DNA of 64,000 nucleotides from an uncultured Ruficoccus sp. (GTDB lineage Bacteria > Verrucomicrobiota > Verrucomicrobiia > Opitutales > Cerasicoccaceae), in the NCBI GenBank assembly GCA_965140785.1, contig OZ223491.1, positions 29,796 to 93,795 on the forward strand. The letters run 5' to 3'. Positions 30,091 to 63,458 of this stretch are shown here, piece after piece. Each line of letters opens with the position of its first letter. Within the stretch, counting starts at the first letter, position 1. A program made the translations under genes and the position numbers. The notes under the pieces were generated by a model. That model had not been told where the DNA came from and ran no database searches. It worked only from the letters and a program-made list of their open reading frames with translations.

Positions 30091-32219
30091 AACTATCAAA
30101 CCTCAAATTAGCAGGATAATGCCTTGACATGAATTGTTCATTATGCCTTACAAGTTCGTGTCTATATTTTGGATAAAGTTTATTGAATTTTGTTTCACTA
30201 ATACTAGAAATATTTCAAATTGTACGTGTTAGATAATCTTCAAAATTAAATTTTATTCCAAAGAGGGAAATTATTGTTTATAATGAGTTGCTTTGCTCTA
30301 AGGTTAAGTCAATTTTAAAAAGATAAATTTACTTGATTTTTTTTTTGTAGATAAAATTTTTTAAGGAATTTAATCATTAGCAAGTTTGTTTGAGTTTTAG
30401 TTAGCCAAAAAGGTAGTAGGCTAATTGTTTTAAAATGTAAATACAGAGCAGTGCATTCCGAATAATTTTAAAGCTGAATTATTTTCTCCAAATTTTTTCT
30501 CTTCCTCCATGCTTTAATAATTTTCATCATTTTTTTCATTTTCTTCAGAGTTTACTAAATTAAAATAAATTATCATTAAATTTAATATCATATTTTAACT
30601 TTCAAATTCATCAATATCTTTATCAATAGAAGATCAATTATCACCATTCTCATCCTCCACTATCTCCCGACCAGAAAATAATAATTCAGCTGCTGCATTC
30701 ACACTTCCTGAGCCTTTAAGAATAATTTTATACTTCAGCTATTCTGGACCTGGAAACCCTTTTTTATTTTTATAATCCTTTGGCAATTAATATATCTTCT
30801 CTTTAAATATTTCTTTACAAATCTCAGCCATTCTTTATTACTATGGTATTGAGCAATGTATTTCAAGTGAAAGAATTATGGGATAAGGATTTTGCTTAAA
30901 CCCTTCATCATTAATTGTTTGGATTACATCTTGGAATAATATTTTTGAAGTCATTGTATGTCCGTGATAGATTATTGGTTCACCGTCAGGTCCGTCCCAA
31001 CAATCCAATTCCACACAACGACAGCCTTTATGGAAAGCCTAATTTATTAGTATTATAATTTTAATTATTTGTTAATTTTAACAAGAGTATATGCTTTTAA
31101 TGAGGATTCGCCAATAAGTTAATCACCGAGTAAGTATGTATTATGAGAACTGTTGATATAATAGTGTGATAATGGTCGATTCATTTTCTTTAATAATATT
31201 ATTAATTACTAAACAATATTAAACTTAATAAATTATTTTTTTTTGTGGGTCAAAAATGCTAGACTAAGTGTCATCAAAAATCCAACTACAGAACATATGA
31301 AAAGTGATATTATTATGATTTTATCGAGATTTCTCTTAATATTCATCGATTCACTTTACAATAGCTTCAAGAGTTACTTCTTAATCTTTTTACTCTGTTT
31401 ACAGAAATATAAGAAATTCCTCAGGAGTCATGAATGGAGCTTCAGCTTTCTTTTCTAAATCTTCATTTTCTGCACTTTTGCAGTATTATTAATAAAGAGG
31501 GGCTAATTCCTTTTTGAATAACAATGATGAAAGAATCTATTAAAATTCATCAAATTCTATGCTATTATTGTTATTTTAATCGAATTCCTTGAAGAGCTTA
31601 CTGACGTATTTTTTGTTTGCTTTTATGTGCATTGATCGAAGCAAACTTAAAGTTTCTTTGAAATCTAGGGAATTTGAATGATCTTTATCTGCTATTGTGA
31701 ATAATTTTTTCATTAAATAATTATTAACAAGCATTTGCCCTCTTACAAATAGAATTAATTTAACAAAAAATACTTGCTTTCTATAGACCCTGTAATAAAA
31801 TGCTAAATTCCTTATCAATATAAATCTCTTGCTTCTTGGTTTTCAAAGTAAAATGTTACTTCTTTATTTGAATTTAGTTTAATATTTAAGGTTTAGTCTT
31901 AAGAAAATTCCTTTTTCATTTTATACATAGGGTGATCATTTAATTCTTTTATTTGGTCTAAGGTAATTCTTGAAACTCCAAATGGCTTGCACTAAGAAAA
32001 TCATTATAAGATCATTATATTTTATGATAAAAGGAAAAGTTAAATTGCATGTTTCTTCTAAAAAAAGTATTTTTTGGATTTTAAAAAAACTTTTCCAGCC
32101 TTACAAAATTTTTCAATTTTTTAATGGTTTTTATTTCCATATTTGATCAAATTTATAGCTGATTCAAGATAGCAACTAGGAAACCCTTTCATTCCTAATA
32201 AATCAGATTTTTATTACAT
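30083..32219 (-). CDS. Phosphoinositide-specific phospholipase C (PH-EF-X-Y), intron-containing, 3'-truncated at the junction
   Basis: With TAR=Q and TGA=W: PH domain (DLYWQGIQ), EF hands, [50 protein letters not shown] and [15 protein letters not shown]. Confidence 0.92.
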
Positions 32220-32332
32220 ATTCAGATAATTTAATATGCAAATATAATTATAAGTTAAATTTGCTTTTAAAAAAAAAAACTCATATAATTTATTTTTATT
32301 TTAATTATTTTATTTTTATTAACAAATTTTAA

Positions 32333-33556
32333 TCAAAGTTTGCAAACTCCAATAGGTAAATCTAATCCATAATCATCTGTCTTAGAATTAATGTATTCTA
32401 CTTTTAATTAGGCTGCTTTCACATTTGTCTCAAATTTGCCTTTTATCATATCATTAACTACTTATTGTGAGAATTTTCCTCCTTCTTTAAGAATCTTCTT
32501 TAAATTTTCATAAAATTCTTAAGTAAAGATGCATTTTTCTGCATTCTATGGATATAATAAATTGATTTAAAAATGTTTTTTACATTCCAATTTCCTTGGT
32601 TAGAATTGACGGTATCTATAATGATGGCATCAAACTTTTCTCCTTTTTCTGCTTAGTCTTTAGCATATTTAGCTCCATTTTCATAGACCAATTCAAGTTT
32701 TTATTCTTTAATTGCCTATAAATATAATAAAAAATAAAAAAATAAACTTTTTCAATTTCAGCAGCATTTGCAAAGAATTTGACAACAACATCAATAATTT
32801 CTGAATCAATATCACAAATAACAATTTTTTTAATCTTCGAAAACTGGCGAAGAAGATAAGTAGCAATAGAAGTATTAGCCCCTCCAATAATCAGAACTCT
32901 TTCCAACTCCTTCTGTTCATCAATAATTTCCCTTGTCATATCCTTATTATAATCATTATCAATCTTTCCTATCAATTTAATCTAATCATCAATTGTTAGG
33001 ATCCTCCCAAGGAATTCATTATCAAAAACACGAATTTCATGTTCTTTTGATTTTTAACGATGCACAATCTTCATATTCTTATAAATAGCTGATGTAAATT
33101 CATTTGAATTTAATAAAAATTTGTTATCGCCTCCCTTTTACTAATAAAAAGATGTTTTGCATTACAAATTGCCAAAAAATTTAGCAAAATGGGTGTAAGC
33201 TGAATCAAGCACTTCTTATTTGCTTTACTCAAAAATATTCAAATCAAAAGAAACAAAATTGTTTTGCTTTGGGAAGCACTAACAGTTCAAATACCCATCT
33301 ATAAAAACAAATTAGCAATAAAATCTTAAAAATAATAAGAACCAGCTAAAGCAAATGTAAGGGTATACTCTGTATTGGCATCACCAAGCTCTATGACCTC
33401 AGCCACTTCGGTATTATTAGTTTTAAAGAAGTCTGCTATTTCTTTTTTGATGAGCTCTTTATTTTTGAGATCGATGATAGTGACATTCTCGTATTCCAGG
33501 AGGAGTTGAAATCCTTCTAAAGGGATTTTGTTTAATTTTACAGCTTAGGTTTCCAT
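32333..33556 (-). CDS. AdoMetDC-like/spermidine-synthase-like fusion with degenerate motifs, intron-containing
   Basis: N-terminal AdoMetDC-like fold, then KSKEHEIRVFDNEFLGRILTIDD, RVLIIGGA, CDIDSEIID and FDAIIID; ends ...GVCKL-TGA. Confidence 0.75.
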
Positions 33557-33838
33557 ATTTTTTTGATTTTTAAGTTTAAGAGAAAATTTTCCAATAATTT
33601 TTATGCAAAAACAAAATTATGCAAAAAAGATATTAATAAATCTTAATAAAAATTTATTTTAAGAATTTTCATTTTTATAAAATAATTGGTCATCAATGCT
33701 ATTATAATATAATTGCTTTAAATTTGTTATTAAGAACAATTTAAATAATACTATTTTTTATTACAGAATTAATACATAAAATTGATATTAATTCTTTTTC
33801 TTAAATACGATAAAAAAATATAATTGTTTAAACATTTA

Positions 33839-36800
33839 TCATATGTCTGCTCCACAAAACATTGTTAATAAAGCTTATTCTTAGTTGCCCTTAAAATAAT
33901 TAAATTCTTCAATAATAAAAACATTAATTATTGTTTCCTTTATTTAATCCATAGGAATTTCTTCATCTTAGTCTTTTTCCATTACAGAAAAAATTAATCT
34001 TGTAAAATAATGGCATAATTCATCAAGAAAATCATCGCCTTCGTATTGAATTTTTATGTATTTGGATAAACAAATTTTAGATCTTAAAAACAAAAAATAG
34101 TTAGAATATATGTTTTACAAAGTAAAAATTTCAAAATAAGATAAATTTCCATTTTTATCTTCATCTGCAATCTATTAAAAAATATGATTATTAATTTATT
34201 GGCCTTTATGAATAAATTTATTTTATCTTTTAAAGTTTTCGCTTGAATACTGCTCATTAATTGTAAAAATTATGCCCAATTTAAAAATTCTGTATAGAAA
34301 AAAATAGATTATAAAAACTATTATTGTCTAACCAAAATTTTAGGTCTCTACACTTTTAAAAATTTTTTCTTATAATTCTTCACTTTATAAAAATATATGA
34401 TAAATTCCATTTCTAAATGTATCGTAATCAACTCCTGTATTTGTTTCTTTAGTTAAAAATTAACATTATATTTATTTACCATAATTTTTATGTCTTTAAG
34501 ATGTAACTTCATGTAAGCTTTTATAAAGAGTATAAATTTGATGTAAATCTCTTCGTTCAAAATGAGTAATATTTAGGATTTTAGGAATATTATGAAGGAA
34601 AATTTCTTTATTATTTTTACGAATTTCTTGAATAATCTTTTTTTTTGATTAAATTTTTCTTTTTAATATATAGATATTAGCTGAAAAATTTACTGGCGAT
34701 TTAATTTGACAAAATCAAGTTTTTCTTTAATTTCTGATTCGTTTCATTTAATTTATGCATCTTCAAAATGATATTTTTCATCTTTTTCATCTTATTTTTA
34801 CTGAACTTTTTTATTTTCAATTCCATAATTATTATAATTCTTAATAATTTTTATCTTATTTGCTTTATAATCAAATTATTAATTCTTTTTTACTATTGAT
34901 TATTTTCACTTTTCAATTAAATATTCTAATCTTTCGGTCATTTAATCAATTTCTAAGATCAAATATATTTAAAATTATATTTAACCTTCATCTGTTAATC
35001 CAGCTCTTGAAGCTATGTATTATAATTCAGGATCATTACTTTCAGCATCGCTTTCCATTGATATTTCATATTTTTATAGCATTGCATTATCATTTGAATA
35101 ATATTTTTCAGCTGCTTTATAAATATGCTAAAATTTTGATTCAACCAAAGGCTAATCTAAATTTTGTTCATTTAAGTAATCCTCTTCATTTGTGAAAAGT
35201 AATTTTTTATTTTATATTATTTTTTTAGGAATATTTTTTAATTGCATTACCTTTGAAATTTAAAAATGTTTATCTGTTAGATTATCTTTTATTATTTAAT
35301 TCATTTCCTCTAATTATTCGCTTGATAATTCATCATTTTTTTAGAGTAATTATAATATTTCATTAATTAATTAAGAATTTTCATTTTCAAAACTTTCCTA
35401 AGCCAATTCATTATTTTAAATTCTTTAGCTTAAATACCTAACTGGCGCTTCTAATTATTTTAAAATATTTTAAATTCGAAGATTATGAAGCTTTGTTATT
35501 CCAAGATGATTCACTCCAATAAATAAAGGAGAATTGCTCACAATAATAGTTTGATCATTTGGAGTTAATTCAGAAAGATAATTGATTATTTAACCATTTT
35601 TTTTGAATATGTAAATTTGTTTTTTTATTAAATTTAAGGATTATTTAATTTATTCTACAAATTTTAGAAATTCTTAAGTTTATTAATCTAAACTTTTCTG
35701 AAAATATTCTTTTTACTTTTTGAATTTATGAATTTAAATAAATTTTACCAGTGGAATTGTTAAGTAGTTATATTTTAAATTATATTTTGTAACAAAATCA
35801 TTGAGATTATGATTTTAAATAACAAGGATAAGTTTTCTTTTTTGAGTTTTAATATTTTTAGCTAAAGTATTGTATGAACCCTAATTTGGATTTATAAGTT
35901 TTTTTTCTATTTTTCTTCGATCTGAACTCTGCAAATTATTTTTATGCTAATTAATTAATAAGTTTTTTATAGTAAAAAATTATTTCGTTTTTTTCTTATA
36001 AAAAAATTTAAAAAAATACAAAAAAACTTGCAGTTTATTTTTCTTTTTTTGCATCAGCATTTATTTCATTTTACTTAATTATAATTTATTTTTTAAATTC
36101 TGCGGTGCTTGCCTTTGTCTATTTAAATTAAAATAACTAATTTCTCTCTTATGAAAGAGTTATTTTTGTATTTTATGATTATTCTGATCTTGGCGTTGGA
36201 AATACAAAATCTTTATGTTTTTCAATATCCGGTAATGTAAATTATTTATTATTTACAAAAAAGTTTTATTATGATTAAACTTTCTTCTAAAAAATATTTT
36301 GCTAAGAATTTTAAAAATACATTTTATGAAAGTTTCCTTTAATAAAAATTTTAAATGGATCCCTTAAAATTAAGTTTTAAATTAGATGATTACATAGCTT
36401 TAGTTTAAATTAATTAATAATGCTTATTCTAAATTTTTATATTACTTCCATTTGATTGAATTGCTTATTAAAAAGCAGATCCCATTGAATTTTATTTATG
36501 AGAATGAGTTGAAGTATTTGATCTGCACGTTAAGAATTAAAATTTCTACTTATTATTTCCTAAATGGTTTCCTTCCATTTCTTAAAGTTAATTTTCAAAA
36601 ATGAAGGACTTTTCATTTTATTTATAATAAACTATATTTTTTAATTATTTAGACTTGCAAAAGGACTGCTACTAGTATTTGATACTGCTCGGTGAGTTGC
36701 AGCTTTCGAGGGGCTTTTTGAAAACAATAGTATATTTGAAATTGTATTATGGTTGGCTTGGAAAGGAGAAGAAGAAAATCATTAGTTTGTTTTGTTTTAT

Positions 36801-36901
36801 TTTCAATGCTAAGGAGCTAGTGTTGGACTTGTTTTATACATTTAGGTTCTTTAAATATCTTCTTTTGTTTCTATTTCGCTTTTATTGATAATTCGCATCA
36901 T
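33839..36901 (-). CDS. Large low-complexity protein with C-terminal NCS/calcineurin-B-like EF-hand domain (5' end uncertain)
   Basis: GVDYDTFRNGI...FLNWAQFL...KINLFIKIADEDKNGNLS...MFCGADI-TGA; several short introns. Confidence 0.65.
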
Positions 36902-37066: not shown

Positions 37067-38215
37067 ATGAAAATGAAAATAAATGAATCAGAGTTAAGTA
37101 GTGAAGAGCGCATATAACTAGCCTTAACTCTAAAAGAAAAAGGAAATTAAAAAATGAAAGCTTCTCAAATAGAAGAAGCTGGTAAACTTTATTTTGAAGC
37201 CTTATCTTATCTTTCTACTGAATGTGGATAAAAGAATGTTGAAATGAAAAAATCTTTATTACTTAATTTATCTTTGGTTTGCCTCAAAGAAAAAGACTAT
37301 GATTCTTGTATATAACATGCGTCAGCAGTTTTAGTTTTAGAGCCTAAAAGTATTAAAGCAAGATTTCGAAAGGGCTGTGCTTTAATGGAAATTGGTGAAC
37401 TTTAGCAAGCCAAGGAAGAATTAGAATTTGCTTAAAAATTAGAGCCAAAATCAACTGAAATTGCAACATCCTTATAAAAACTAGCTATTCGAGAAAAGGA
37501 ATCAAAAATTAAGGAAAAGAAACTTTGGTGGGGAGTATTTGCAGAGGAAGTAAAAGAATAAGAAAAGGAAATCAAAGAATATAATTAATAAAAATAGTCG
37601 CTAAAGTAAATCTTTTTTCAAATAAAATTATAAGTTTAGATTGTAAAAATGATCCCTAACCTCAAACTATTATTTCAGAAAATTGCTAATAAAATAATTA
37701 GGAAAATATTACTGTATTTTTGGATATTTCCATTGAAGGGAAGGATTCTTAAAGAATTGAAATATAATTATTCAATAAAGAAGTGCCTAAGACTTGTGAA
37801 AATTTTCTAAGTTTATGTGCTGGTGAAAATTAGCTTTCTACCTATAAAAATCTATCATTTCATAGATTAGTAAAAAATTTTATGATTTAAGGAGGTAAAA
37901 TGGAAAATAGTTACGAATTTGAGGATGAAAATTTCTCAATAAAGCATTCGGAAAGAGGAATGGTTGCAATGGCAAATAATGGACCCAATACTAATGGGAC
38001 TTAATTTTATATTATTTTCAGAAAAACAGGTTTTTATTTTAATTAATTTTATTGTTATAGCTTGGCTTGATGGGAAACATGTTGTCTTTGGAAAAGTAAT
38101 TTCTGGTCTAGATTTCTTAACAATTTTGGAAAATATAGAAGTGTTGGAAAATGATGTACCAAGCAAAGAAATAAAAATAGTTAATTGTGGTTAAATAAAA
38201 AAATAAGAAGATTGA
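37067..38215 (+). CDS. TPR-domain + cyclophilin-type PPIase (introns 37606-37634 and 38030-38060)
   Basis: Three TPRs (LKEKGN...KARFRKG), then [43 protein letters not shown] and [12 protein letters not shown]; ends TGA. Confidence 0.92.
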
Positions 38216-38290: not shown

Positions 38291-41200
38291 TCAAAGAAGA
38301 TTATAATTGATATTTTCTTTCCATAAATGCTTTTAAATTAAAACCATTTAAGATGGTGATAATTCTTATAATTTCTTAGAAGAATCCTTGATAATCAATA
38401 ATTTTCCATCAGTTTCCAATTCTAAAGGATTTTCCATTAAGTTTTTATTATTAGCGTTGAGTTCCGACCATTTTGCTTCAAATAAAAGAAATCTATTCAA
38501 AAATAATTTTATAAATTGTTTAACCTAGTAAAATTATTTAATTTAGGAATTATTGTTCCACTAATTTCAAACTTCAAATCAAGAAGCTTTTAAATTTATT
38601 AAGCTAATTGCTCATACGTAATTAAATTTGATACAATTAATTCATAAAACTCTCCTAAAAATTAAGTCTCTGGATCATAAAGTGAAAATTGTATTAAATG
38701 TTCTGAATAAGTCATTTATTTATAAAAAGATATTTCATTTATAGACTGCTAGGTATATTCAAAGGCAAGAGCCTTTCGATCATGAACTTGTTATGCTTTC
38801 AAGGGAACATCCTTATAAACTCTTTACAATTTATTTCCTATTTTTTCACGAAGTCTTATGTTATTTATTGAGAATTCAGTTGATTTGATCAAAGAAGAAA
38901 GTTAAGGAAAATATTATTGTATGATTTCCTTTGGCGTGAAATTATTGCTGATAATTTCTGAACCCAGAAAGGTGAAATTATTTAAGAATTTATCATATTC
39001 AAGTATTTCTTCAAAATTATCTCCTGTGTAATTTAAAAAATCCTTACGTGATGAATAATAAAAATGAATATAAATTTCATCTTTTTATTATTTTTATATT
39101 GAGCCAAAATCCAAATAAACACTTATTTAATTATCAACAGGCTATTGAGATTCCAATCTAATATAAAAAAAATTAATAAAAAATTCATAGAATACTTTAA
39201 ATTATTATTAGAAATTTTTACTCCAGCTTTTCCATTCATAATAAAGCCAAACGATGTAGATTCTAATTCTTCATCAAAATTTGTTTATATGTATTATTAA
39301 AGTTCTAGAAATGTTTTTGTTTTAGAAAACAATATTGTAATTGATTCAGGAGCAGAGTATTCATCAATTTACATTGTTAGATTTAGAATTTAAACTTTAA
39401 AGAGATTATTTAATTCATTAAAGTATTTTATCCATTAAAGATTTTCATTTTACTTTTCTATAAAAAACTCTTTAGAGGGTAAATATTCTATTTATTTTGA
39501 TAAATTTTCTTCTGTTGGTAATAATTATCTGCCAACCCAATTGGATGACACTTCTTCCTGCTATTTAATTATAATTGCTAAAGAGTTATTATTAATTCCT
39601 GTTTATGCACATATTAAATCTCTTAAATCTGAATAAGATTTCAATTTATTGATTTTAATTTTTTCTGAATTTATATCAAAAGAATTTAAAGTAATTTTAT
39701 ATCTAAAAATTTTGATTTCAGTTTCTTCAATATTATAACTTTCAAAGTCTTTTTAAATATTTTTTATTTCTAAATATAATTTCGTAAACCATCCAAGTTA
39801 CAACTCCCCTAAAGTTTTATCTTAATTTTAATCCTCTAAGACATAATGTTTTTTCTCATTATATCTCAAATTATAGAACCTCAACCTACAATTTTCAATT
39901 GACTCTTTAATATCAAATTCTAAAATAGTTTGTTTCAGCAATGAAGAATAGCTTTAGCTTTTAGTTGCACTAATAATTTTCATTTAATCATTATAAAAAA
40001 TTTATAATTAAATTTAAGAAAGTTCTAATTATTTCTTAACTTATTCAGCAAACTCTTCTTCCTAAATAGTTGCCAGCAGATTCTCAGGAATGGCAAAAAG
40101 TTTATCCAATGAAATTTAAGTTTTAATAAATTATTCATACTAATTTACTTATTTTATTGCCAATTTTGTATAAAATAATAATTACGCATTACAACTTTTT
40201 CTATTCCCACCAAACGATTTCTCTTTAATTTCATTTATATCAACCAATTCTACTTTTTTATCAAAAAACTTATACCATCTATGATTTTCTAAACTTTATA
40301 TATAGGCAAAATAATGGCCACTATTAATCCCTCCTGCATGGATTATAATAGATGTTAATTCATATAATTCAGCTTCAGGGTCCTCAGTAATAAGAGATTG
40401 GAACCTATTGATTTATTCTTATTAGAATTAAGAGTAATTTTCTTCAAGTAATTTTATTTTTTAATCTTAATTTAAGGCCTTGAGTTATTAGTTAGCGAAT
40501 GTTTATTCAAGAGAATTAAGTTTATTTTACTCCTCTTCTTCTTATTTTTATTTTTCAATGATTTTCGTTTTTTCTAAAGGATTAATAGATTTAAATGCAT
40601 TGAGATTTATTAAAAAAGGAAAACTCACGTAATCATTTAATTTTTATTTTTTCATTGTTTAAAAATTTAGAATAAATCTGTTAAAGCAAAAAGTGCAAAA
40701 CTCAGGAAATCTATGAATTAAAATGCCTTTTTTTGCTTCTTATTTACCTTGGCATTGACTGCAAAAATATTTATTTGAATCCTTTAGTTCTTCAATCTCA
40801 GTCTATTCTATTAAGCATTTTTCAAGATTATTATTGCAAATTTTACGATATATATCCTTTACTGTAAGAAATTGTGAAGTGAAATTTTCAATATTTTTTG
40901 ATTTGTATTAGCAATTTTCACAAATTATATAATTTTCTGAGACACCTTGAAATAAATCAGACATCAATAGATTTAAATCAGTTGATTTTAATTCTTATTC
41001 TAAACTATTCACTATACCACAAAAAAATTCACCAGCATCCTATTACTCTAATATTTCATAATCATATTTCTCTAAACTTAAAATATATTAAAAATTTAAC
41101 ATTTATATATACCTTGCCGCAAACTCATTGGTTGAAATAACTCCTCCCTTTGATTTCAATATCATTTTGGCAAACAATTTTTAAAGGGAATAAAGCAAAA

Positions 41201-41484
41201 ATTAGTTTGAATTGTCAATTTGTAGATGTAAAATATTATTTGTAAATTATAAATTCATGAATAGAGTTTAAAGAATACAATTCATATAACAATTATTTTT
41301 TTTGTTTGTTAGGCCTATTGTTATTACATTACTATAGTTATAAAAAAATGTTGCCTGTGTATGGGTTATTTTCAAAGGTTTCTGAAATCTAGTTATAAAT
41401 CATTTCTGATTATTTTAGGTCTTTTTGAAATTCAAGCAATAGATTTTTTGGAGGCAGTGGTGGTGGTGGGGGTGGATTTGACAT
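38291..41484 (-). CDS. Ubiquitin-specific protease (USP47/USP7-like), intron-containing, one apparent +1 indel near 41345
   Basis: Cys box GLTNKKNNCYMNCILQ, QQDAGEF, and His box HAGGINSGHYFAYI...WYKFFD...NAYYLFY; ends TGA. Confidence 0.88.
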
Positions 41485-41603: not shown

Positions 41604-42147
41604 ATGAAAAAAATAGAAGAGAAAAAAAAAAATGATAGTTCAAATGGTAAAAGTTTCTCTTTAACATTTTTACTAGGTTGGCTATACGGGCTATTTGGAG
41701 TTGCTTTAGGTTTCAACAATAAAAACTTATTTTATAAATTAAGGTGCTGCTGGAGCTTATGTTGCTTCAAAAATTTTAAATGATAAAGAGTTTTATAAAT
41801 TATTTTGAATTATTACTTTTTGTTGAAGCACTGAAAATACTGTAACTTAAAAAACTCCTGCAACATTTTCAGTTGAAAACGAGAATTTGCTTTGTCCAAT
41901 CTCGTAATGTAATAAAATTTAAAATATAATTCTTAAAAAACATTTTTATTCAGGTCTGATGACTGACCCGATGACAATAAAGCAATGCGGACATACATTT
42001 GACAGGAATTCAATACTATAATGGCTGGATAAATAGCAGTTTTGTCCTCAATGTAGAACACATGCTACAATTGAGGACCTTGTTTAAAATTTTACAGTAA
42101 AAAGCTTAGTTTAGGATGCAATAAATTCTAAGGAAATTAAAAATTGA
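41604..42147 (+). CDS. Small U-box E3 ligase with N-terminal membrane anchor (3 introns)
   Basis: LLCPISQCLMTDPM...CGHTFDRNSILQWL...CPQCR...LVQNFTVKSLV; ends TGA. Confidence 0.82.
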
Positions 42148-42940: not shown

Positions 42941-42973
42941 ATTATTCTGAAAATAAATTCAAAATAATATTAA

Positions 42974-49898: not shown

Positions 49899-52800
49899 TC
49901 AATTCTTGGATTCATTAAAATTAATTGAACCATAATGTTCTTTTAAGTCAAATAAAATAAAAATATATTATAACTTAATTATTCCGTCATTTTTTTTTCA
50001 ATCACACGTTCTTATAATAAAATCAAATAATTATATAATTACCTAATTTTTTAGCAATTTCTGTTTCCATGGATGCCCCAATCTTTTATGAATCACCATA
50101 TAAGCCAGTTTAGCCTAATTCATTTTTTGATAACAATTATTTTAATCTAAAAATTTAATAAATTACAATTTTATTTACGATTCTTTGATGATGAATATAT
50201 CTTGATCTAATAATAATAATAATATAATATACAATATACTCTAAATTTTAAGTTTTTTATTTAATGAATCCAACTTTCCTTTTAATAATTCTCCTTCTGG
50301 ACTAAGTTCAGTTAATTAATTTTACAAGATTCTGAAGATAAAAAGATATTTATTTCCATATTTCTTTTCAAATTAGTTAAAAACTTTTGAAGGCAAATCT
50401 GAATCAATAGATGCTATAAGTCTAATTCTTTCATATAGAAATGCTATATCTTTTTTCTAAGTCTATTGCACATACGAGTCATTCACAAAAGCAATTAATA
50501 AATTTAACATAATTATCATAAGCAACAAAGTACAAATAAAGAAAATTAGCCAAATAAAAAAATTGGAATCAGTAATTTCTTCATTTGTAGCTTCTTCAAA
50601 TTAATCAAAATCTCCTAGTAAAACTTTGTAAAGTATTTTCGTCATTGTAAATAAAGAAGTAGTTTCAATTTCAGGCTTCCATCGATTTTACATTTAATTA
50701 ACTAAAAAAAGAGTTAAATGAAATTAAAAAAAAATTAACAAGTCAAAGTAAAAGCAAATACCATCCATAATAAAGTGATAAAAAAGTATTTCATATCATC
50801 AAAAACAAATATTAGCATCCTTGTAATGAATGACATCTGCTAAATTGCTCTAAAATAAGTAAGAATTTTGACAGAGCAAAGTAAAACTGATAATGAAGAA
50901 AACAATCTTAAAGTAAAACTATTTTCTGCTTATTAAACGAGATCATAAATTAAATAAACAACTGTAATTAGAATAAATGCACAATCAAACCAATTCCATC
51001 TTTCTCTTAAATAATATCTGATTTAACCTTTCATTTATCCAAGTTCTTTCCAAAGAAAATTAATTAAAAAAATCAGTAAAATGCTATCAAGTATGTTAAG
51101 TAAAACTAATTTCGTCCCCTCAATTTTATCTCCGTAATGAAAAACAAAAATTTAAACCATCAGTCCTGCAATAAAAAGTCCAAGCCTAATAAATTCTGAC
51201 CAATACTGTGAGCTTGCATAATTATCCCATTTTAATTTAGCAACTTCCCAAACAACTTTACTCTCAAAAATCTTATTATTAACATCTAAATTTGCCAATT
51301 GCCTGAAAAAATTGCCTTATGGCCCTATCAGCCCTGGTATAGTTACAACATTCCATTAACCTATTTATTTATCCCCTTCAATATACTGAAATGACTATTC
51401 TTTAAAATCTTCATAGAGAGAATCTGAAAGCTTGGACATTGGTATTCCTGATGTTTCAGTTATTAGCATTGGAGCTCTTACTTCTAAAGTTTCAAAGAAT
51501 TGTATTGCATTTGCTGAGAGGTTATTTCCTGATAAAGTAAAAAAATTCTGTAATTATGTAGTTGAATTTATTCCAGTAAACGGTTAAGAAAGATTTTTTT
51601 GGTTTGCCATGCAAAATTTAAATAGCTATTCTTTACAAGAGCTAAATTTACCGTAATGAGAAATATCAAAAATTGAAAATCCAAATTAATCAACTTCAAA
51701 GGATAGCTTTATTGGTGGATTAATAACTTAAATTAAATGTAAATAGGCTATAAGCAATTGTTCATCATCTAAATATAACAGAAAATGCAATATTGGGACT
51801 TTTTTATTATATCCAATATAATATTAATAAAATCCAGTCGCAATTTTTTTAATTCATTAATAAAATTATTATTTGTTTGGATCATTTCTTAATTTTTCAA
51901 AAAAACTTTATTTTTTTGTTTTTAATTTTTCTTATTCTTAATTATCAATTTATTTTGATTGTTTCTATTTTTATTCCCAAGCCATAGATCTTTAAAGTTC
52001 TTTTAAAATTTCGATAAATTATGATCCATATTTTGGAAGTGCATTAATATTTGGTATATTAAATAATTCATTGAATCTATTTAAAATTATAAATACAAAA
52101 ATAAAATAACAATTTTAAATTTTTCTTTTTTTATTCATTAGCGAGTAATTTTCATTTAAATTCAATTAAACTATTTGCAGTCACTGTTTGAAATTAATCC
52201 TCTTCATATTTTTATGATTTATAAAAACTATTTTCCTATACAAATTCCCAAATTTTATCCATTTTCCTAATTTCAATAATAATTTTAAAATTTACCTGTT
52301 TCCAGTATTTTTGACCCCATAAATAATATCCTTATTAGCAAATCCAATTTTCATTGAGCCATAATCTAATGGTTCATTTATTATAGGTAATAAAGTATAT
52401 TTTGGCTTATTTCATTACTCCTTGCCAGTACGAAAGATTTATTGCCTAAAAATAGGATAAAATAAAATTAGTGAAAACTTATCAAGAAAAATAGCTACAA
52501 GAAATTCAGCAGTTTAAGATAAGTAAATTTCTTTAATTTTCAGAGAGGATTAGTCAATTTGCAATAATTATTAATGATTTTCTACTCTCCACAACTTAAT
52601 AATTTATGAAGTTTGAGTATTAGCTAAACTACCAAGAAAATTGTCGTCTATAGAAAAGACTAAGAATTAAATGAAATGTTAATAATCAGCAAATAGCTTA
52701 AAATCTTAATTTTTAAAATTATAAATTCTTATTTATTAATCTTATCCTCCACTGGCTAGTAATTAATTATTATTTGAAAAGCATAAAGCATCAATTCGAT

Positions 52801-54899
52801 TTATATGTTATTAAAGAGTTTCTTTCATTGCTTTTTCTTAAACATTTCAAATTTAAATAGTATTCCAAACTGTGAGAGCAAGTAGATTTTTATTAGGAGA
52901 AACAGCAATTTAATTAATAAGATTGGTATTCCCTTTAAAAATTGATTTTTCTATCACAGTTTCTAAATGCCAATCATAAATAGAACTAGAAAATCCTATT
53001 GCAAGTATATCTCCACTATTAGGCTAAAATTAAATTTATCTAGGGTAATCATTTTCCACAGTGCTTTCATAGATTGCTATTTATTATTTTGTTTCTAAGC
53101 TCCAGAGCAATATGGTTCCTTAAGAAAGTAAGCATGCTAAGAGTTTATCATCATTAGAAACACAAATTTAAATGGAAATTTCATTAATTGAAAAATTTTA
53201 TATTAGAACTTTTTTTGTTAGATCCCAAATTTTTAGTGTCTAGTCTTGAGAAGTGCTGCAAAGAGTTTTGCAGTTTTTACAAAAAGTAATAGACATAATT
53301 TTCTATGAATTGACATGTCCATATAAAACACAAAATTATGAATAAGTTTCTAAATTTCAGATTATTATAGAGCCGTCATTTAAACCCGCTGCTATAAATT
53401 TATTATCAATTGAAATATCAAGACACTTTGCCGAGTCCTTAAGATCTTCTAATACAAATTAATCTGATTTTATGTCATTTGCTCGCCAAAGAAGAATTTT
53501 CTAGTCCTCTGCCGAACTGGCCATAATATTTCCATTAGTTGAAAAAACAATAGCATTAATATCATCTTCTAAATGATGGTCTAGCGTTTTAACTTTATCT
53601 CCTTACTCTGACCATACTTCTATAAGTCGGCTTTACTATGACCAAGCAATTAACCCTAATGCTTCATTATAAGCTAAAACATTTATAAAATAAGGTTCTT
53701 CATCTTCACTCACTTCTTGCCAACCAATTTTTTTTACACTTTTTGTTGAGTTATTTTCATAAGTTGTTCCATAATTTTAAGCTTCAATGAATCCTTAATT
53801 TGTTTCAAGCCACATTCCATTAAAAGGCCGTTTATATTGGACTTCATCGTCTAGATCAAATTTTCAGATTTTTAATTAAATATCCGGATCTTCACTTAGA
53901 ACTATTGCATGCTTTTTAGTCATGGCCACTCCTCTGATTTAGAACCCATCTTTTGGACCAAGTATGGCCAGTTCAATTTTAGTTTCTGCTTAATATACTC
54001 TTACAACCTTTTCAGAGCCTACAATTATATTTTTCATGTCTGTTGAAAAGCCAAGTGTGTTAATTGGGTTCTAGATTTTGAATTAAAAATATTCTGATTT
54101 GGTTTCAAGATTCCAAAACCTAATTGTTTAATCTTCAGATCCTGAAATTAGAAACTTTGCATTTTACTCTTCATTGCAGAAATCTAGTGCGCTGATTCTT
54201 TCTTCATGGCCTAACAATTAGTGCCATTCCCGTTTAGGCCAAAAGCACAACCTCAGAATATTTTCTTCTGATATACAGAGCCAATTACTTTCTCCAACTT
54301 TTTCATGCGAAAATGCTACTTATTAATCTAATTTTAATTCATCATCCTCGTTTTTAAATTCTTCAAGAGTTGTCTTTGTTGAAATATCCCAGATTTTTGT
54401 TGTTAAATCATCAGATCTTGAGGCAAGAAGTGAAGATGTTGAATTGAAGCTGAGACTAGTTACGTAATTGTCATGCCCAGTTAATTTTTACACGAATCCA
54501 AATCGGCCTTCTGTTTTTTAATATAAACTTATAGTAAAATCCTAAGAGCCACAAGCTAAATATTACCCATTTTCAGAAAATTTTATACAAGTAATTCATT
54601 CTTCATGATGGGTTTCAGTTTGCAGTTCAATAATATCTTTTTGACTTAGCCAATCATAAATAATTATGGATCTAAAAATATTGTTATCATTAAATAAAAT
54701 ATTACCCAGATTCGTAGCCAACAGCTAAATAGTTTTCATAAACTGTTAAACAAAGTGGATTTACATTTTCAATTGCCTTCAATCTTGTCATTTATTTTTT
54801 TTTCTCTGTATGAAAGCTTATTGAGTTATCATAGTTGTGATCAAATTCAAACTAAACAGAATTCTTGATGTTTTCGATAATCTTTTAATTTTAAAACAT
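49899..54899 (-). CDS. Multi-WD40-repeat protein fused to a TRP-like 6-TM cation channel domain
   Basis: Many GH...WD repeats (e.g. LCSTSQDQTLKIWD), then KLKWDNY, WNWFD, pore LLGDF and S6 IIMLNLLIAFVNDSY. Confidence 0.82.
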
Positions 54900-55053: not shown

Positions 55054-55282
55054 AAATTGTCTTCAAATTGTCTTCAAATTGTCTTCAAATTGTCTTCAAA
55101 TTGTCTTCAAATTGTCTTCAAATTGTCTTCAAATTGTCTTTAAATTGTCTTCAAATTGTCTTCAAATTGTCTTCAAATTGTCTTCAAATTGTCTTCAAAT
55201 TGTCTTCAAATTGTATTCAAATTGTATTCAAATAATATTCAAATTGTATTAAATTGTATTCAAATTGCATTCAAATTGTATT
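55054..55282 (+). repeat. 11-bp tandem minisatellite (AAATTGTCTTC)n
   Basis: 14 near-perfect units to ~55207, then ~6-7 AAATTGTATTC-type decayed units. Confidence 0.95.
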
Positions 55283-55396: not shown

Positions 55397-57353
55397 ATGC
55401 TCTTTTATACAAACTAAAAAAAGCCTAATTAATTAAACAGAAGTGATTAAAGCTATAATAGACATTATTAACAAGATGAAATCGATTTAGAATTTCATTA
55501 AAAAACAAAATATGAAAAAAATTAAGTTTACAAAAATATAATATTATTTTTTAAATTTTTAACTGATTAGTGGTCAGCACGATATGAGTCTTCTTTACGT
55601 ATAAAAATTGAATCATTACTTAAATCAAAAAATGATTTAGAAATAGAAATTAGCAATTTACAAACAATTATTAAAGAGGCAATTTTATTTATTGAGTTGT
55701 AATTTATTGTTTTAGCAAAAAAGTAAAATTCTTCGATTAGCAAATAGTCTTAAAAAATAAACATTTGAAGTTGAAAATAAAGATAAAGATATTAAATCTC
55801 TCACTTTCAAATTGTACAAGTAATTTATTTTAACAAATTAGATAAATTTAAATATTTCTAGTTTAAAATAAAATAAAAATACAAAAGAATTTTTAGAATA
55901 AGATACGTAAGAAGTTCAGCAGGATGGTGATAAAGTATTACAATAATAATAATAAATTGCAATGCTTTAAGAATAATTAATTATCTTAGAAAAAACTATT
56001 TATTCATTACAAAATTAAAGAGTAATTAAAAATATTTGTAATTTATTCTCTAAAAGGATAGTTAAGCAAACTTTGAAATTCCGAATTAATTTTATGCTTA
56101 AACATTGTAAAATTATGATTAAGAAATTAATGAGCTGAAAGAAAATAAATTTGAATCTGATTAACTGATAACAAAATTAAAATTAGAAGTAATATCATAT
56201 AATTCTGTTAATATTTAAATAGTTGCAAAACTCATAATTTGTAAATAATTAATAAAACAAAGTGAAAAATTCATTATAAGAGTAATTGCAGTAAAATTAT
56301 GAAATTATTGAGAATATGATTAGTTAGAATTTGCATCTTCAAAATGTTAAATTATTAAATAATATAATTTTCTTAAGGTTTTTAATCAATTGAATTTAGA
56401 AAAATAAGAATTTTCAGAAATTATAGAAGTATAAAATAATTTTATTGATAATTTAGTAAAAATGTTATTTAATTTATTTTTTTTAAGACTCAATTAAAAT
56501 AATAAAATCAATAATTTTAAGAATAATTTTGATCAAATAAAAAAGTTTTAAAATTAATTAATTATTATTTTTAAAAAAGAAATTAGAAATAATTGAATAA
56601 AGAACACTTAGTCCTATACATAATTATTAAATTTATTAGAAGGATTCTTTTCCTGAAGTATAAAAATAGCTTTCTTTTTAGTTTTATTTTTCTTAAAAAA
56701 ATTATTATTAAAAAAGAAATAATTAATAATGTTTGCAAAATAAATTTTGTATGATGTGTAATCAATATAAATCTGATTATTTTAAAGCTTTATAAGAGAA
56801 AGATAATTTTAAACGAATGTATGAATAACTAAAAAAAAGTTAAATTATATCAACAAAATAAATAACAGAAAAGTCTCCTAAAAACAGTTATGAAAATTAA
56901 GAACTAATTTTGGAAAAATAATAATTAAAAGTTATATTTTATACTGTGAAATAGTTAATAAACTTAGAAAACAATTAAATAGTTATTAAAGAAAAATGAG
57001 TTAGCGGAATATGAAAAATAATAAATTTAATTATAAATATCAAAAAAATAAGAATAAATTGAAAAATTAATAGAATAGAAAAGATTACTAGAAGCAACAT
57101 TAGGAAATCAAATTATTACACTTCAGTTTAAATATTTTTTCTTAACTGAAATATATTTATCTATAGATCAGCAAATAATTGTTACAAAGGAGAAGCAAAA
57201 GAGCTAATATAGAAAACAGAGTTAATCTAAGAGGAAAATGAAAGCTTAAAAAATATAATTAAAAGACTTGAATTTAAAATTGATAAATTTGAATAATTTT
57301 CACCAAGAATTTCAGAAATATAATCAAAAAAAACAATGCATATTAAAAAATGA
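55397..57353 (+). CDS. Coiled-coil protein (many introns)
   Basis: Q/E/K/L-rich heptad-like exons; ends ...HIKK-TGA-TGA. Confidence 0.6.
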
Positions 57354-57391
57354 TGATTAGATTATATATTTTAAATTAAAATTTGAATTTT

Positions 57392-59680
57392 TCAAACAAA
57401 TTTTAGCATACTTTCTAAAAATTATTTCAATTTTAATTTAATTAAAGTTATTATTCCCATTATAAGTGCATCTAAATTCATTAATTAATGATAATGAAGA
57501 ATAGTTTTGCATTTTTCTATGGCTTTTGTTAAATTTTATTCAGTTCCAAGACCATATTCATGCATATAACTTTCTGCTAGAAGTTATTCTGGGATAATAT
57601 ATTCTACTATCATTCCTTTCTTATAAAAGCTTGTTAACTGATAAAACATATAGGCTTATGTATAATTTGAAGGTAACTATTTACTCCCATAAAAAAGTAA
57701 ATTTCCAAGTTAATAACCCCCTATTTAATTATTGTGAAGTAATTCTTTATATGAGTATAATATCTATAATATTAATAGTAAAAATTTTTAAAATAACTTC
57801 ACAAATTTTTGTATCATTATTAAAACATGATTAATTTAATTCTAATTTGGTTTGTATTAAAAATTAAATATTTTCATAGCCTTAGCTTAGTCCAATAAAT
57901 GCTGCCATTTAATTATATAGATAGCTTCCGAAGAAATCCTCGTTTTAATAAGCTTTGAGTCCTTTTTCTAAAAAACCAAAAGAATTTGCTTTTTCCATTA
58001 TTAATTTTCAATAATTTTCTGCCTAGTATTCTAAAGCAATAAATTAAAAGTAATTAAGATTTACAATCAATCAATTCTTCAGAATCTTCGCTGTTCACAG
58101 TAAATTACATAAGGTTATACATTGAGGATAATTCGTTTTTATTAGCAGCTAATTTCATATAATATATTCCTAAATCTTGGGATTAAGGAATAATATCTTT
58201 ATAGCCATCATAATATAATGCTCCAAGATTAGCCATTGCCTCAACATTTCCAAATTTTACAGATTATTAAAAATAATAAAGAACTTTACTAGGATCTTCT
58301 TTTTAAAGTTCTAAATTATATAAATATAAATAAGCTAATGCATTATATCCAGCAGCTGCAAAAGATGAATTAGAATTAATTGTTTTATTAAGAAGATCAA
58401 TTGCTTTAGTATAATTTTTTTTCATTCCTATTCCTTATAAATTCATAATGCCTAAAGCATGCTAAGCATATGGCTCATTTTATTAAGCTGCCTAATTAAA
58501 ATAATTTATTGCTTCGTTATAATTTTATTCAATGCCTTATGCAGGATCTCTATTAGAAAAAACGATTAAATTAAATTCATAAAAAATTATAATAATATTT
58601 ACCCTTTGAAATACAGTTCCCCTAAGTCTAGTTAAGATTAGGCATTACCATTTTCAGCACTGTGCTTTAATATTTAAACAGAATCTTTATCGATTTTTTT
58701 TTCCTTTTATTAAATTGGATTCTTATCATACTTTTTAAGAGGAGGTAAAGGGGTATTTTAAATTCCTTAACTTTCCAAATTATTAATTGAATTTCTAGCT
58801 GCAACTTAAAATTTCAATGAAAAAAACAAAAATTACTTAAGCCAATTTGAAGTGCTTGTTTTCATTCATGGCAATCTTTATAAAAAAATGGAGTTTGCAA
58901 AAAATTTTCAATTTATAATTAATTCATAGAAATATTATTAAAATCATTAAGAAATAAAGACATTCATTAGTGCAATTCTAATAACTAACTTTCTGAATTG
59001 CATAAAATATTTGAAGCAAAATAAATAGCAGATGCTAAAGCACTCTCTCTATTAAGACCAACACTTAAAATATTGAACCAAATGTCTTATGGAACATTAA
59101 AGATTATTTAATCTTAGATTTTTTAAATTAGCAAGGACTAATAATAAAAAAAGAATAAATAGGCAGGTGCATCTTTATGACCTAATTTATGGGCTTCTAT
59201 TAAATAATAATAAGCTTTAACAAAATTTCTTCCATTTTAATCAATTTTGTAGGTTTCATCAAGAGTTTAGAGTTTTTCCCACTTTTTTAATTATTTCTCA
59301 TTCATTTCAAATTCTAAATCATCACAATTACTTATTATTTAATTTGTGTATTCCTAATAATTTAATTCAGCAGTCGAAACGCTTGGATTTGGCATTTCTT
59401 TATCAATATAAGTTAAAGTTCCAAATAAATAATGATTTGCTAATTTCATTGCCGCATGAGAGTTTTACTCTAGTACATAAGATCTTTATAAACAATACTA
59501 AAAATCGGTAAAATTTCTTATTTCTGAATGTTCTAGAAATTTAATATAATTTCATAACATGCTTCTTGGCTCAAATTAATGTATTTAGTTTTCATATAAT
59601 AGTAGCTAAGGAATTTTGAATGAATAAGATGCTTTTATAAAAAGAAGCAATGAAATCATAAAGTGATATTAAATTGGCAT
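57392..59680 (-). CDS. SEL1-repeat protein, SEL1L/Hrd3-like
   Basis: Signal peptide; AQHALGIMNLQGIGMKKNYTKA, AMANLGALYYDG and YMHEYGLGTEQNLTKA; ends ...LKFV-TGA. Confidence 0.8.
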
Positions 59681-59844
59681 TTGACGTGTAAATTTTTTAA
59701 ATAATTTGAACTTAAAAAATATAAAAATCTTATTATATCACAACAAGTTGAACTTTTTTTTTTAATAAACAATAAATAAAAGAATTTTCACTTATTAAGC
59801 AAATTATATAATGAACAATTAGACTGGAAAAGTCATCTAAATTT

Positions 59845-61379
59845 TCAACAGCAGCTAAAAAATTAAAAGCATTTCATCCAAAAAGAAATCTTGCAAGAAT
59901 ATTATCTTTGCAAACATTCAGAAATATTCTTTTGAATTTCTTAATTGCTTGTCTAAAAATAAATTAAAATTTAATAAATAAAAAAATTTTCTTACACTAT
60001 AATAGCATTTTATTAAATATTTTTTTGGAAGCTCAGTTTTTAATAAAATATATTTAATTATTTCTTAATATTATCATCTAAAACAACAGTTTATTATTAA
60101 ATTAAAACCTAATAGCAGCTTCAATTGGTATCTCTTCAAAAGCTTTATTATTAATCTATTTCAAAACTAAAATTAAATAAAATTTACCAAAGAGACTTAT
60201 AATGGGTTAGCCTTGAAGTCAATTAAAAATTTAACTACCTAATTTATTTGAATAAAACAATTAAATTGCAACCTCAATATTCCCATATTTGCAAGCTTCG
60301 TATAGAGGAGTAACGCCAAACATATTTCTTTAATTAACTAAATGATCAGGATCAGATGGATCATGCAAATTGTGAGAGATATCTAAGCGTAGGAGCTATT
60401 TCATGAAAGATATATCCTTTGGGGATCCTCTTCCGGCAAGTTAGACGAGATTGTTAATTTTTAATTAACTTGAAAATTCATTATTATTATTTGCTATTAT
60501 TTATGAAGTTTATGAATCTGGTTGATAAATATTGCAGGATTTAATTTCTGTTTCGATATTGTTCTAAGTTTTTAATAAAATTTAATTAATATTTACTAAA
60601 TCAAGAGATTTCACTTAATTTGTTCTCAATAGCCAAACTGATGTAAATATATGACTCAGTTTATTTCATTTAGATTTTCCAACATTTGGCTTTCTTAACA
60701 AAAATAATTAAGAACATTTAATAATACTTTGAGTTAATTTTATTAGATCCTTTTATTTTATTCTAAAGCAAGAATCTTTATTTAACATTTTTTTCTTTTT
60801 TTAAACATTCAGAATTTCATTCTATTGCATTACTATTCCTTAATTTGCAAGCGCTTTAAAAACTCTCTTATTCTTATTTTTAAAGAGGAGATAATATATA
60901 TGAATCATCAATTTAAATATTCTCATAAAAGATCATTGGCTTAACAGTACTATTATTATTACTTTCTAATGGTGATTTTATTTCTAAATCTTAATTGATA
61001 ATTTTTGGGAGTTTAATTTGAGTAAATGAATTAGATTTATTGTTGGCTGGTAAAATTTATTTTTCTATATTTTTAGAAAATGTTAGTTCATTTTATTATT
61101 CTAAATTATTTTAAGAATGAGAATTATTTCTTAAAATCTTAAAGAGTTTAGAATTATTAAAAATTTATTATTCATGAATCTTAGGTTATTTTTATCTTCA
61201 GTCATTTAGATCATCCTCTAAATCATCAGGAGTATCAACTTATTAAGTTCGAAATTATTTATTTATATCTAAATAATTTTATTTAATACTCTTAAGGAAC
61301 TTTAAAAAATTTTATCTTATGGAGTTTTTGGGTCGTTTTCTGTTGTTGAAACCAAATTAAAATTTACTGGATCTGACAT
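59845..61379 (-). CDS. Ankyrin-repeat protein with C-terminal -CC motif
   Basis: GVTPLYEACKYGNIEVVKFLIDFKANP and EIPIEAAIR(TGA=W)QYQEII; ends FFSCC-TGA. Confidence 0.72.
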
Positions 61380-61685
61380 TATAAATTAATATATTATTTT
61401 TTTTTTAATTGAATTTAAGTAAAAATTACCAAAAAAAAGCATAATTATTGTGATAATTTTAATATTTATTATTATTTTTTAATTTTTTAAAAAAAAACCC
61501 AAAATTATACTAATTGTTTTTAAATTATTCAATCAAAATTAAAATTTTGAAATTTCATATTTCATTCCTTTGAGTTCAAATTCATTAAATAAAATCTCTA
61601 ATAGTTTTTAAAATTTGGATTTTATTTGTTATTGGTTTTTTAAAGTTTAACTGAAGAATAATAAAATTTCAAATTATTAGAAAAA

Positions 61686-63458
61686 ATGAAAAAAAATTGG
61701 AGTACAATTAATAAAAAGCAAAATATAACCAATCTTTCTGAAATAATGAAATCAACACAAACTTAAACGAGAAAAAAATTACTTAATGATATTTTTTCTG
61801 TGAAGAGAAAGCTCTTTTTTGATTAATAATAATCAACGACAGGAAATTTTTAAATGGAAGAAGAAGAAAAGGAATTAACTAATTAAAGCTTTATTGTATA
61901 GCCTTTATACACAGAAACAATTTATAATAATAATTATCAACCAATATCAAAAAATTATTTATAACTTGAAAGTATTGATAATACAAGCCCCATGTTTAGT
62001 AATTTTAATTTTTTGTAATTATGTTAAATTTAAATTTTAGTTTAAAATAATTAGCCTGATTATAAAGAATTTAAAACATTTAATGTTCCGAATGTTGAAA
62101 AAACTTTACCAAAACAACGAAAATTACAGGATCCTAATTTATTATATAGGTAAGATCGAAATACTGATTAACAATAATCTAAAAATTAAATACAATAATA
62201 ATAATATGAAGCTTTACCTTTAAATTATCATTAACTCCATGATAATCTTCGCAAGATTGGCAATTATATCTACGATAAAAGTAAATTACTAGGAAAGGGT
62301 TCCTTTAGCAAAGTTTATAAAGGATATTCTATTTAATTTCCTCGTTTTCCTTTAGCAATTAAATGCACATCACGTGATAATTATAATCTTCAAGAAATAT
62401 AAGTTTTGAAGATAGTTTCATCAAAAAATGTTATAATGTTGAAGGATGCAGTATAACATGGAACTAAGAATTATATGATGATGGATTATTGCGATGGTGG
62501 TGACTTAGGATAAAAGAAATTCTAGAATCTTGCAATTGTCTAAGTTTACAATATTTTCAGATAAGTATTAAACGGAATGAAAGAACTGTAAGGACATGGA
62601 ATCATTCATCGAGATTTAAAGCTTGAAAACCTTTTATTAAAAGAAAATTGTGTAAAAATCTCAGATTTTGGATTCGCTAAACAATTAAAGTTGCTAATAA
62701 TATCTATAAAGGATCATATTTATTTTTTATAAAGATCACTTGCAGCTGAAAGTGTAAAATGCGGGACTCCAGCAACAATGGCCCCAGAAATACTCTTTAA
62801 TCATAACCATAAAGCTATCTACACAACAAAATGCGATATTTGGTCATTAGGGATTATTTTGCATTAGCTTGCTTATGGGTGTCATCCATTTGATTATAAT
62901 TCTTAAAGAATCCTGTAAAATATAAGAATTAAGTTATTTTTTGTTATAAATATTTTAAATATGAAAATGTGTAGAATTCCAAATAATAAGTAAGATAAAT
63001 ATATTGAAGATTTTTTGGGTAAGTCGTTGGCTTTTAACCCTAAATAACGAGTAATATAAGCAATATTATAATTTTTTTTTTTTTTTTAGATGAATTGAAA
63101 TGAAGTATTTTCTCACTAGATTAACTATTTGCCTCCAGAAAATTAACATTCTCATAATAAAACCAGAAAGTTTATGAATTAATAATATTAAAAAGTAAAT
63201 ACAATTGTTGAAGAGAGTCATATAAGATCAAGAATGGAATAATAACCATTTAATAAATAATAAATAATTTCAGAAAAACCTTAAAAATGTGTGCCAATTT
63301 AATTATACTAATCAATTAATTAAGTAGTTAATGAGAAATAAGATAAAAATTAAATGTAATAAATAGCTTTGTGTTAAATTGGTAAGTATGAAAGAATAAT
63401 TTTTTTTATAATTATTCTTATTATCATTTTATTAATAACTAAAGCCAATTTAAAATGA
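61686..63458 (+). CDS. Ser/Thr protein kinase (ULK/CAMK-like) with hydrophobic C-terminal tail
   Basis: [34 protein letters not shown] and DIWSLG; ends [23 protein letters not shown]. Confidence 0.88.

Follow-up and report, generated by a model that had tools for sequence, protein, structure and literature searches.

Ciliate DNA with introns of ordinary size and a genetic code in which UAA, UAG and UGA are all read as sense, fused to a Verrucomicrobia-type contig in a bacterial genome assembly

The window analysed here, i.e. the whole stretch of 64,000 nucleotides (nt), corresponds to positions 29796-93795 of contig C20 in an assembly that is filed as prokaryotic (4.36 Mb, 50 contigs, guanine-plus-cytosine (GC) content ~0.6), and it falls into two parts. 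Positions 1-30082 are, by their composition (GC 0.4-0.65), the bacterial part of the contig, presumably of Verrucomicrobia/Opitutaceae type; positions 30083-64000 have a GC content of ~0.22 and carry what are probably genes of a ciliate, in which UAA and UAG are glutamine codons and UGA is a tryptophan codon inside genes as well as a terminator. The AT-rich part opens within a minus-strand phospholipase C (PLC) gene (30083-31698), of which an EF-hand region, the X domain, a linker and the start of the Y domain are present, as judged from PDB matches to PLC-delta1 and PLC-gamma. Further along are a spermidine/spermine-synthase-like gene (32345-33559, minus strand; Pfam PF01564 and PF17284, and the gene model), a TPR-cyclophilin gene (37082-38215, plus strand; Pfam and PDB alignments), a USP47-like ubiquitin hydrolase (38312-41399, minus strand; Pfam PF00443, 3.3e-42) and a WD40-repeat plus ion-transport protein (50038-54655, minus strand; Pfam WD40, 2e-52, and Ion_trans), the Pfam run having been made on selected frames. 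Two other genes in the ciliate DNA, RPLP2 and PP2B, the latter on contig C39 of the same assembly, are also central to what follows.

The change in composition at 30082/30083 is sharp, and the joint interrupts the PLC gene, whose Y domain is cut after ...RFDSSNY. Contigs of four public runs (X1, X2, X3 and X5, from three studies) were compared with window positions 28000-33000, and in that interval no contig crosses the joint. In X1 a 13.7-kb bacterial contig (depth 3.9) spans 28000-30082 and then diverges into other sequence. Ciliate contigs beginning at 30083 have depths of about 16, 1350, 99 and 16 across the four runs; those of X2, X3 and X5 share one identical upstream sequence, which is unlike the bacterial side of the window, and in X2 the word depth is about 1300-1350-fold on the ciliate side and zero on the bacterial side. 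Because the composition breaks there, no run contig bridges it and an alternative upstream sequence is shared between runs, the joint is taken to be an artefact of assembly. Further AT-rich ciliate pieces in the assembly are C39:~276051-305856 and C42:1-1300, the latter an RTEL1 fragment; both end mid-gene, the C39 piece with a PP2B gene truncated after ...FTWS. The ciliate total is ~65 kb in three chimeric contigs, the piece in contig C20 extending over 59878-93795, and every one of the three joints lies inside a ciliate gene (PLC, PP2B or RTEL1). As part of the best overall explanation, positions 30083-64000 are probably ciliate nuclear DNA from the sequenced sample, wrongly fused to a Verrucomicrobia contig; in practical terms, a species-representative bacterial genome contains ~65 kb of ciliate DNA. 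Over 28000-33000 the ciliate DNA is near-identical in runs of three studies that carry three organism labels, and at position 30519 all four runs have one common letter, unlike that of the window.

The introns of the ciliate DNA form a narrow size class. Eighteen are well supported, with lengths of 29-45 nt and a median of 35 nt, none being 15-25 nt. Nine are from the PP2B gene (C39:276052-277381, minus strand), for which three homologues (from Protocruzia, Stentor and one unlabelled source) were aligned with splicing against C39, introns down to 14 nt being permitted; nine GT..AG introns of 38, 39, 35, 34, 34, 35, 39, 32 and 36 nt were placed identically with all three homologues, and none shorter than 32 nt was found. 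Four more are segments that contigs of run X5 skip, namely 30298-30332 (35 nt) and 30555-30599 (45 nt) in the PLC gene, both GT..AG on the gene strand, and 32546-32583 (38 nt) and 32716-32748 (33 nt; 32 nt in the gene model) in the spermidine/spermine-synthase-like gene, also GT..AG. All four are retained in contigs of the three other runs, and the X5 contigs are read, from these GT..AG-bounded skips, as resembling complementary DNA (cDNA). The remainder are three introns of RPLP2 (42, 31 and 29 nt), 31039-31082 in the PLC gene and 38030-38060 in the cyclophilin gene. Lengths that are multiples of three occur in five or six of the 18 (39, 39, 36, 42, 45 and possibly 33 nt), so that depletion of such lengths is not visible in this small sample; where no codon is a dedicated stop, retention of such an intron would not create a premature stop.

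For statistics over all the ciliate DNA, a frame-tracking gene model was used that allows introns of 14-60 nt and misses most of those with a length divisible by three; two prior parameter sets were rejected, as they split genes or bridged intergenic DNA by false 60-117-nt introns. The model contains 56 introns (median 36 nt), four of them of 26 nt or less, and puts the overall intron density at 1.35 or more per kb of coding sequence. PP2B has its nine introns in ~1.05 kb of coding sequence, while PMC13685798 quotes 2.87 per kb as the highest genome-wide intron density of a ciliate. Genes of this organism seem unusually rich in introns, with the USP47-like and some other genes here having few introns.

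The size class is what the original prediction had proposed (~29-44 nt, not 15-25 nt) from five introns, and the PP2B, X5-skipped and RPLP2 introns extend it, even though the individual introns fared unequally. That in the PLC gene, placed at ~31040-31083, is real, 44 nt long and GT..AG on the minus strand, with its coordinates one base off (31039-31082); the exons flanking it match residues 164-197 and 198-306 of the PLC-delta1 chain 1qas_A, gaplessly. The 31-nt intron at 38030-38060 holds as predicted, its exons matching residues 3-119 and 121-164 of cyclophilin A (1ak4_A), with residue 120 encoded by the split codon. The 29-nt intron at 37606-37634 is plausible, since it has GT..AG ends and restores the frame from the TPR region to the cyclophilin domain; the linker there is not covered by a homologue, and removal of 37597-37634 (38 nt) is equally good. 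The last two were not confirmed: 34172-34203 begins with GC on the gene strand, and taking out its 32 nt would disrupt the reading frame that continues through it, and 55679-55715 as written likewise has a GC start, the same frame change being obtained with a GT..AG intron at 55696-55723 (28 nt). Thus two of the five hold (one with a shift of one base), one is plausible and two were not borne out.

Introns of this length are not those of karyorelicts or heterotrichs. Loxodes, a karyorelict, is reported to have introns with a mean of 19.3 nt and a mode of 17 nt, 93% of them being of 25 nt or less (PMC11441545), and heterotrichs are reported to have introns of 15-16 nt at a density below 0.10 per kb of coding sequence (PMC13685798). 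By contrast, none of the 18 supported introns here resembles the tiny introns of Heterotrichea (15-16 nt) or of Karyorelictea as represented by Loxodes (17-25 nt). They are closer to the introns given in PMC6920121 for Chilodontopsis depressa (36 bp) and Oxytricha trifallax (38 bp), intramacronucleate ciliates that share with this DNA introns of ~35-38 nt, GT..AG boundaries and AT-richness. Those two species differ from it in keeping at least one dedicated stop, Chilodontopsis using mostly TAA as its stop and Oxytricha using table 6.

The position of the organism was addressed with PP2B, whose spliced protein (349 residues) was placed in a maximum-likelihood tree of 55 rows under LG+C20+F+G4. 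The query lies in a clade of 19 rows (ultrafast bootstrap (UFBoot) 97, SH-like approximate likelihood-ratio test (SH-aLRT) 93) together with Nassula, Pseudomicrothorax, Tetrahymena, Ichthyophthirius, Pseudocohnilembus, Paramecium and unlabelled metagenome rows, and this clade is nested in one of 24 rows (100/98), which also takes in Protocruzia and the spirotrichs Stylonychia/Oxytricha. None of the eight labelled heterotrichs, i.e. five Stentor, two Blepharisma and one Climacostomum, is inside the 24-row clade. A tree constrained to have the query outside that group is worse by 14.65 log-likelihood units and is rejected (approximately unbiased (AU) test, p=0.0142). Within the tree the query is at the base of the Nassophorea and Oligohymenophorea group, by a weak node (72/66). 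Sequence identities run from 65 to 68% for oligohymenophoreans and Pseudomicrothorax and mostly from 58 to 63% for heterotrichs, with one partial Stentor match of 68% over 279 residues. Because the PP2B tree excludes the heterotrichs, the claim of the original prediction that the organism is neither a karyorelict nor a heterotrich holds, on one gene; intron length and intron density also support its assignment to the intramacronucleate ciliates. Placement of the proteins within Karyorelictea or Heterotrichea, or outside the ciliates, had been named as the outcome that would speak against that assignment, and in the PP2B tree, in which labelled karyorelicts are absent, the protein branches in neither way.

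Other proteins were less informative. The USP47-like protein has best relatives that are ~30% identical, none above ~36% (HMMER), with one named cluster (Stentor) among the 10 top clusters looked up, and a word search with it returned no ciliate; it was rejected as a marker of lineage. A search with the RTEL1 exon gave Moneuplotes and Paramecium as its only named ciliates, and there was no labelled plagiopylean protein among the labelled matches of the PP2B, USP47 and RTEL1 searches.

Taken together, the source is likely to be an intramacronucleate ciliate from the side of Oligohymenophorea and Nassophorea (CONThreeP), with sense meanings for each of the three stop codons and with GT..AG introns of 29-45 nt. 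Among the alternatives to this, that of a karyorelict or a Condylostoma-like heterotrich, with introns longer than those of Loxodes or Stentor and with the known postciliodesmatophoran code, survives best and is nonetheless improbable. Its attraction is that the code found here is identical to that of Karyorelictea, in all examined members of which UAR is reported to be glutamine and UGA tryptophan or stop (10.1101/2022.04.12.488043); karyorelicts with table 27 (Parduczia, Loxodes magnus) also have AT-rich DNA, with UGA read as tryptophan inside genes and as stop at their ends. In addition, the expectation for karyorelict introns comes from a single genome, and the PP2B tree has no labelled karyorelict. 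Against it are the uniform lengths of the supported introns (18 of 18 at 29-45 nt, compared with a mode of 17 nt in Loxodes), an intron density far above that of heterotrichs (PMC13685798), and PP2B, which groups with Oligohymenophorea and Nassophorea, apart from the heterotrichs as the sister class of the karyorelicts. Condylostoma magnum (table 28), for which a stopless, context-dependent code is reported (PMC4967479), is similar in that each of the 64 codons has a sense meaning and context decides where translation terminates. It differs in its heterotrich introns of 15-16 nt and in that UAA and UAG also terminate there, whereas only TGA is enriched after gene ends here.

The evidence for the code itself is of two kinds, from conserved positions and from codon counts. 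TAA stands at two invariant glutamines of cyclophilin (FMIQGG and NGTQF) and at the glutamine of HECRQ in PP2B, and in RAHEA-Q-IDGYKM of PP2B the glutamine position, which is glutamine in all three homologues, is TAG. In the gene model, 761 in-frame TAA and 159 in-frame TAG codons compare with 197 CAA and CAG codons. For UGA, the conserved positions are those of the WD40-repeat protein: its minus-strand frame from 54655 to ~50038 is open for >1300 codons except for TGA, and of the nine tryptophan positions of its WD repeats six are TGG (KIWD, RFWN, LLWR, KIWD, LLWS and KLWR) and three, adjoining them, are TGA (53864-53866, 53357-53359 and 52847-52849, in LKI#KFD, III#NLE and IQI#NVQ, where # marks the TGA). 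The gene model has 25 TGA and 110 TGG among 13,852 predicted codons, i.e. a TGA share of about 16-18% of tryptophan codons, or roughly one in six, some of the 25 being in mis-modelled stretches. UAA and UAG are thus glutamine codons and UGA is a tryptophan codon inside genes.

An ordinary ciliate code, i.e. table 6 with TGA as a stop and nothing else, would require the in-frame TGAs to be errors, pseudogenes, missed introns or selenocysteine. Such an explanation would fit with the four most conserved genes or domains (PP2B, the cyclophilin domain, the PLC X domain and RPLP2), in which TGA is missing and tryptophan is TGG only, and with the mis-modelled fraction of the 25 TGAs. It is very improbable, in that the three TGAs of the WD40 protein are exactly at WD-repeat tryptophans of a single frame that is otherwise open, positions that are also at odds with selenocysteine. 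Moreover, since window positions 28000-33000 agree with runs of three studies, the DNA is not an error-ridden assembly; that stretch matches the independent runs save for scattered single-base differences, with the TGA codons lying outside it.

UGA also terminates genes. The spliced RPLP2 protein (115 residues) ends in the conserved acidic tail ...GGLFGDDDF, followed at once by TGA, and the TPR-cyclophilin protein ends ...NCGQIKKQED, followed by TGA at 38213-38215; in the spermidine/spermine-synthase-like gene an in-frame TGA comes 3 codons past the end of coding potential. Over the predicted coding ends as a whole, 17 of 33 have their nearest downstream in-frame TGA no more than 9 codons away, compared with 3 of 33 in each shifted frame. 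Neither TAA (16, 21 and 19 of 33 over the three frames) nor TAG (4, 3 and 3 of 33) is enriched in frame. The overall pattern, with UAR as glutamine and UGA as tryptophan or stop, is of the NCBI table 27 type. The ciliate is a contaminant with a code of a type that is already known. Other traits of codes of this type are a scarcity of sense UGA directly ahead of stops, short 3' untranslated regions, a tRNA-Trp with a 4-bp anticodon stem and a suppressor tRNA-Gln. By analogy with work on Loxodes, Condylostoma and Blastocrithidia, termination would be context-dependent, in that a UGA near the 3' end of the mRNA may be taken by eRF1 while upstream UGAs would be decoded by tRNA-Trp.

The idea that the DNA is from a non-ciliate alveolate whose code is stopless, for example an Amoebophrya-like syndinean (in Amoebophrya sp. 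ex Karlodinium veneficum all three stop codons are reported to be sense; PMC6394959), is hardly credible given that PP2B falls inside a clade of labelled ciliates, that ciliates are the best named matches to PP2B and USP47, and that the very AT-rich DNA, TAA as main glutamine codon (761 versus 197 for CAA plus CAG) and short GT..AG introns are all ciliate-like.

Several considerations weigh against the assignment to an intramacronucleate ciliate with this code. The phylogeny is of one gene, with a long query branch (0.70) and a weak place within the 19-row clade (72/66); the group used in the AU test was defined after the tree had been seen; and the tree holds no labelled row of a karyorelict or a plagiopylean, while its unlabelled metagenome rows may be of any origin. 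The expectation of tiny introns in karyorelicts is that of one genome (Loxodes), and the cDNA-like nature of the X5 contigs is an interpretation, the kind of run that X5 is not being on record and none of the listed sequencing runs being given as RNA. The statistic on gene ends derives from a gene model in which TGA is itself penalised, and the 33 ends include some of internal fragments. Finally, the 65 kb of ciliate DNA yielded no rRNA, tRNA, eRF1 or telomere: Rfam at gathering thresholds gave neither rRNA nor any other eukaryotic RNA in the window, the C39 tail, C28, C15, C44, C3, C24, C41 or C9, ARAGORN gave no tRNA gene in the ciliate DNA, and telomere repeats are absent from the contig ends.

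With an intramacronucleate source preferred, the issue becomes whether its code has an origin of its own, as the original prediction had suggested while pointing to a similar code in plagiopyleans. Such a code is indeed published, for Plagiopyla frontata, in which UAA/UAG as glutamine and UGA as tryptophan are reported from a transcriptome, with internal UGA rare (3 of 240 conserved proteins; McGowan et al. 2023, PMC10553269); the assignment of UAR to glutamine and UGA to tryptophan or stop is restated in 10.1101/2023.10.09.561518 and PMC11687900. In the article texts surveyed, this code is reported in ciliates only for karyorelicts, Condylostoma and Plagiopyla; low-level use of UGA as tryptophan is described for Zosterodasys and UGA as cysteine for Peritromus (PMC10089648). 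The Plagiopyla code is thus a published case of an origin that lies outside Postciliodesmatophora, the karyorelicts and heterotrichs, so that an independent origin in the present case would be new only if the organism is not a plagiopylean.

P. frontata resembles the organism here in the meanings of its codons and in being an intramacronucleate of CONThreeP, with an origin of the code separate from those of karyorelicts and Condylostoma. It differs in the rarity of its internal UGA, as against ~16-18% of modelled tryptophan codons here; for introns, no data on Plagiopylea were found in the literature. A tentative assignment, falling a little short of an even chance, is that the organism is a plagiopylean or a close relative that shares the origin of the P. 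frontata code. It is possible, if rather doubtful, that it belongs to another intramacronucleate (CONThreeP) lineage, which would make it a further, fourth ciliate origin of the code. If it is indeed not a plagiopylean, the new case would be one with UGA as a common rather than rare tryptophan codon, in intron-rich genes with ~35-nt introns. Each independent origin is a natural replicate on the prerequisites of such codes, including changes in eRF1, a tRNA-Trp with a short anticodon stem and short 3' untranslated regions.

Genomic support for the code in intramacronucleates is thin, that for Plagiopyla consisting, in the reports cited, of a few internal UGAs in a transcriptome. In the genomic DNA described here, UGA is a frequent tryptophan codon and a terminator, alongside ciliate introns of ordinary size. 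This combination decouples the stopless code from genomes with tiny introns like those of karyorelicts and heterotrichs.

The ciliate part of the window has several other features. The USP47-like gene includes an exon of 836 codons that is free of TGA, and it is followed by an exon of a U-box/RING protein (41830-42147, plus strand; Pfam PF04564) with an in-frame TGA 3 codons beyond the end of coding potential. A large plus-strand gene at 43010-48891, known from the gene model alone, consists of several frames linked by predicted introns of 29-44 nt, and no Pfam family matched it. Between genes, at 55054-55279, is a tandem repeat with an 11-nt unit in 20.6 copies (94% matches), and beyond it are genes for a Sel1-repeat protein (57446-58805, minus strand; Pfam PF08238, 6.5e-20) and a Ser/Thr protein kinase (61650-62894, plus strand; Pfam PF00069, 4.8e-41). 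The RPLP2 exon has a weak Pfam match (E 0.0099, below the cut-off), and two exons of this gene had no usable match in PDB searches. An ABCA gene that had been proposed for the end of the window is unconfirmed, no Pfam family being found in any of the three plus-strand frames of the last 300 bases (63700-64000); one frame there resembles a membrane segment with an in-frame TGA.

Elsewhere in the assembly, contig C28 (GC 0.28) was considered as a ciliate piece and rejected, being from a low-GC bacterium with long frames in the standard code. The other contigs of odd composition examined with it (C9, C41, C44 and C15; GC 0.28-0.49 with C28 included) likewise look like other bacteria, not ciliate, and the Rfam matches in the scanned pieces are limited to a bacterial tRNA-Sec, on C15, and a group II intron, on C44.

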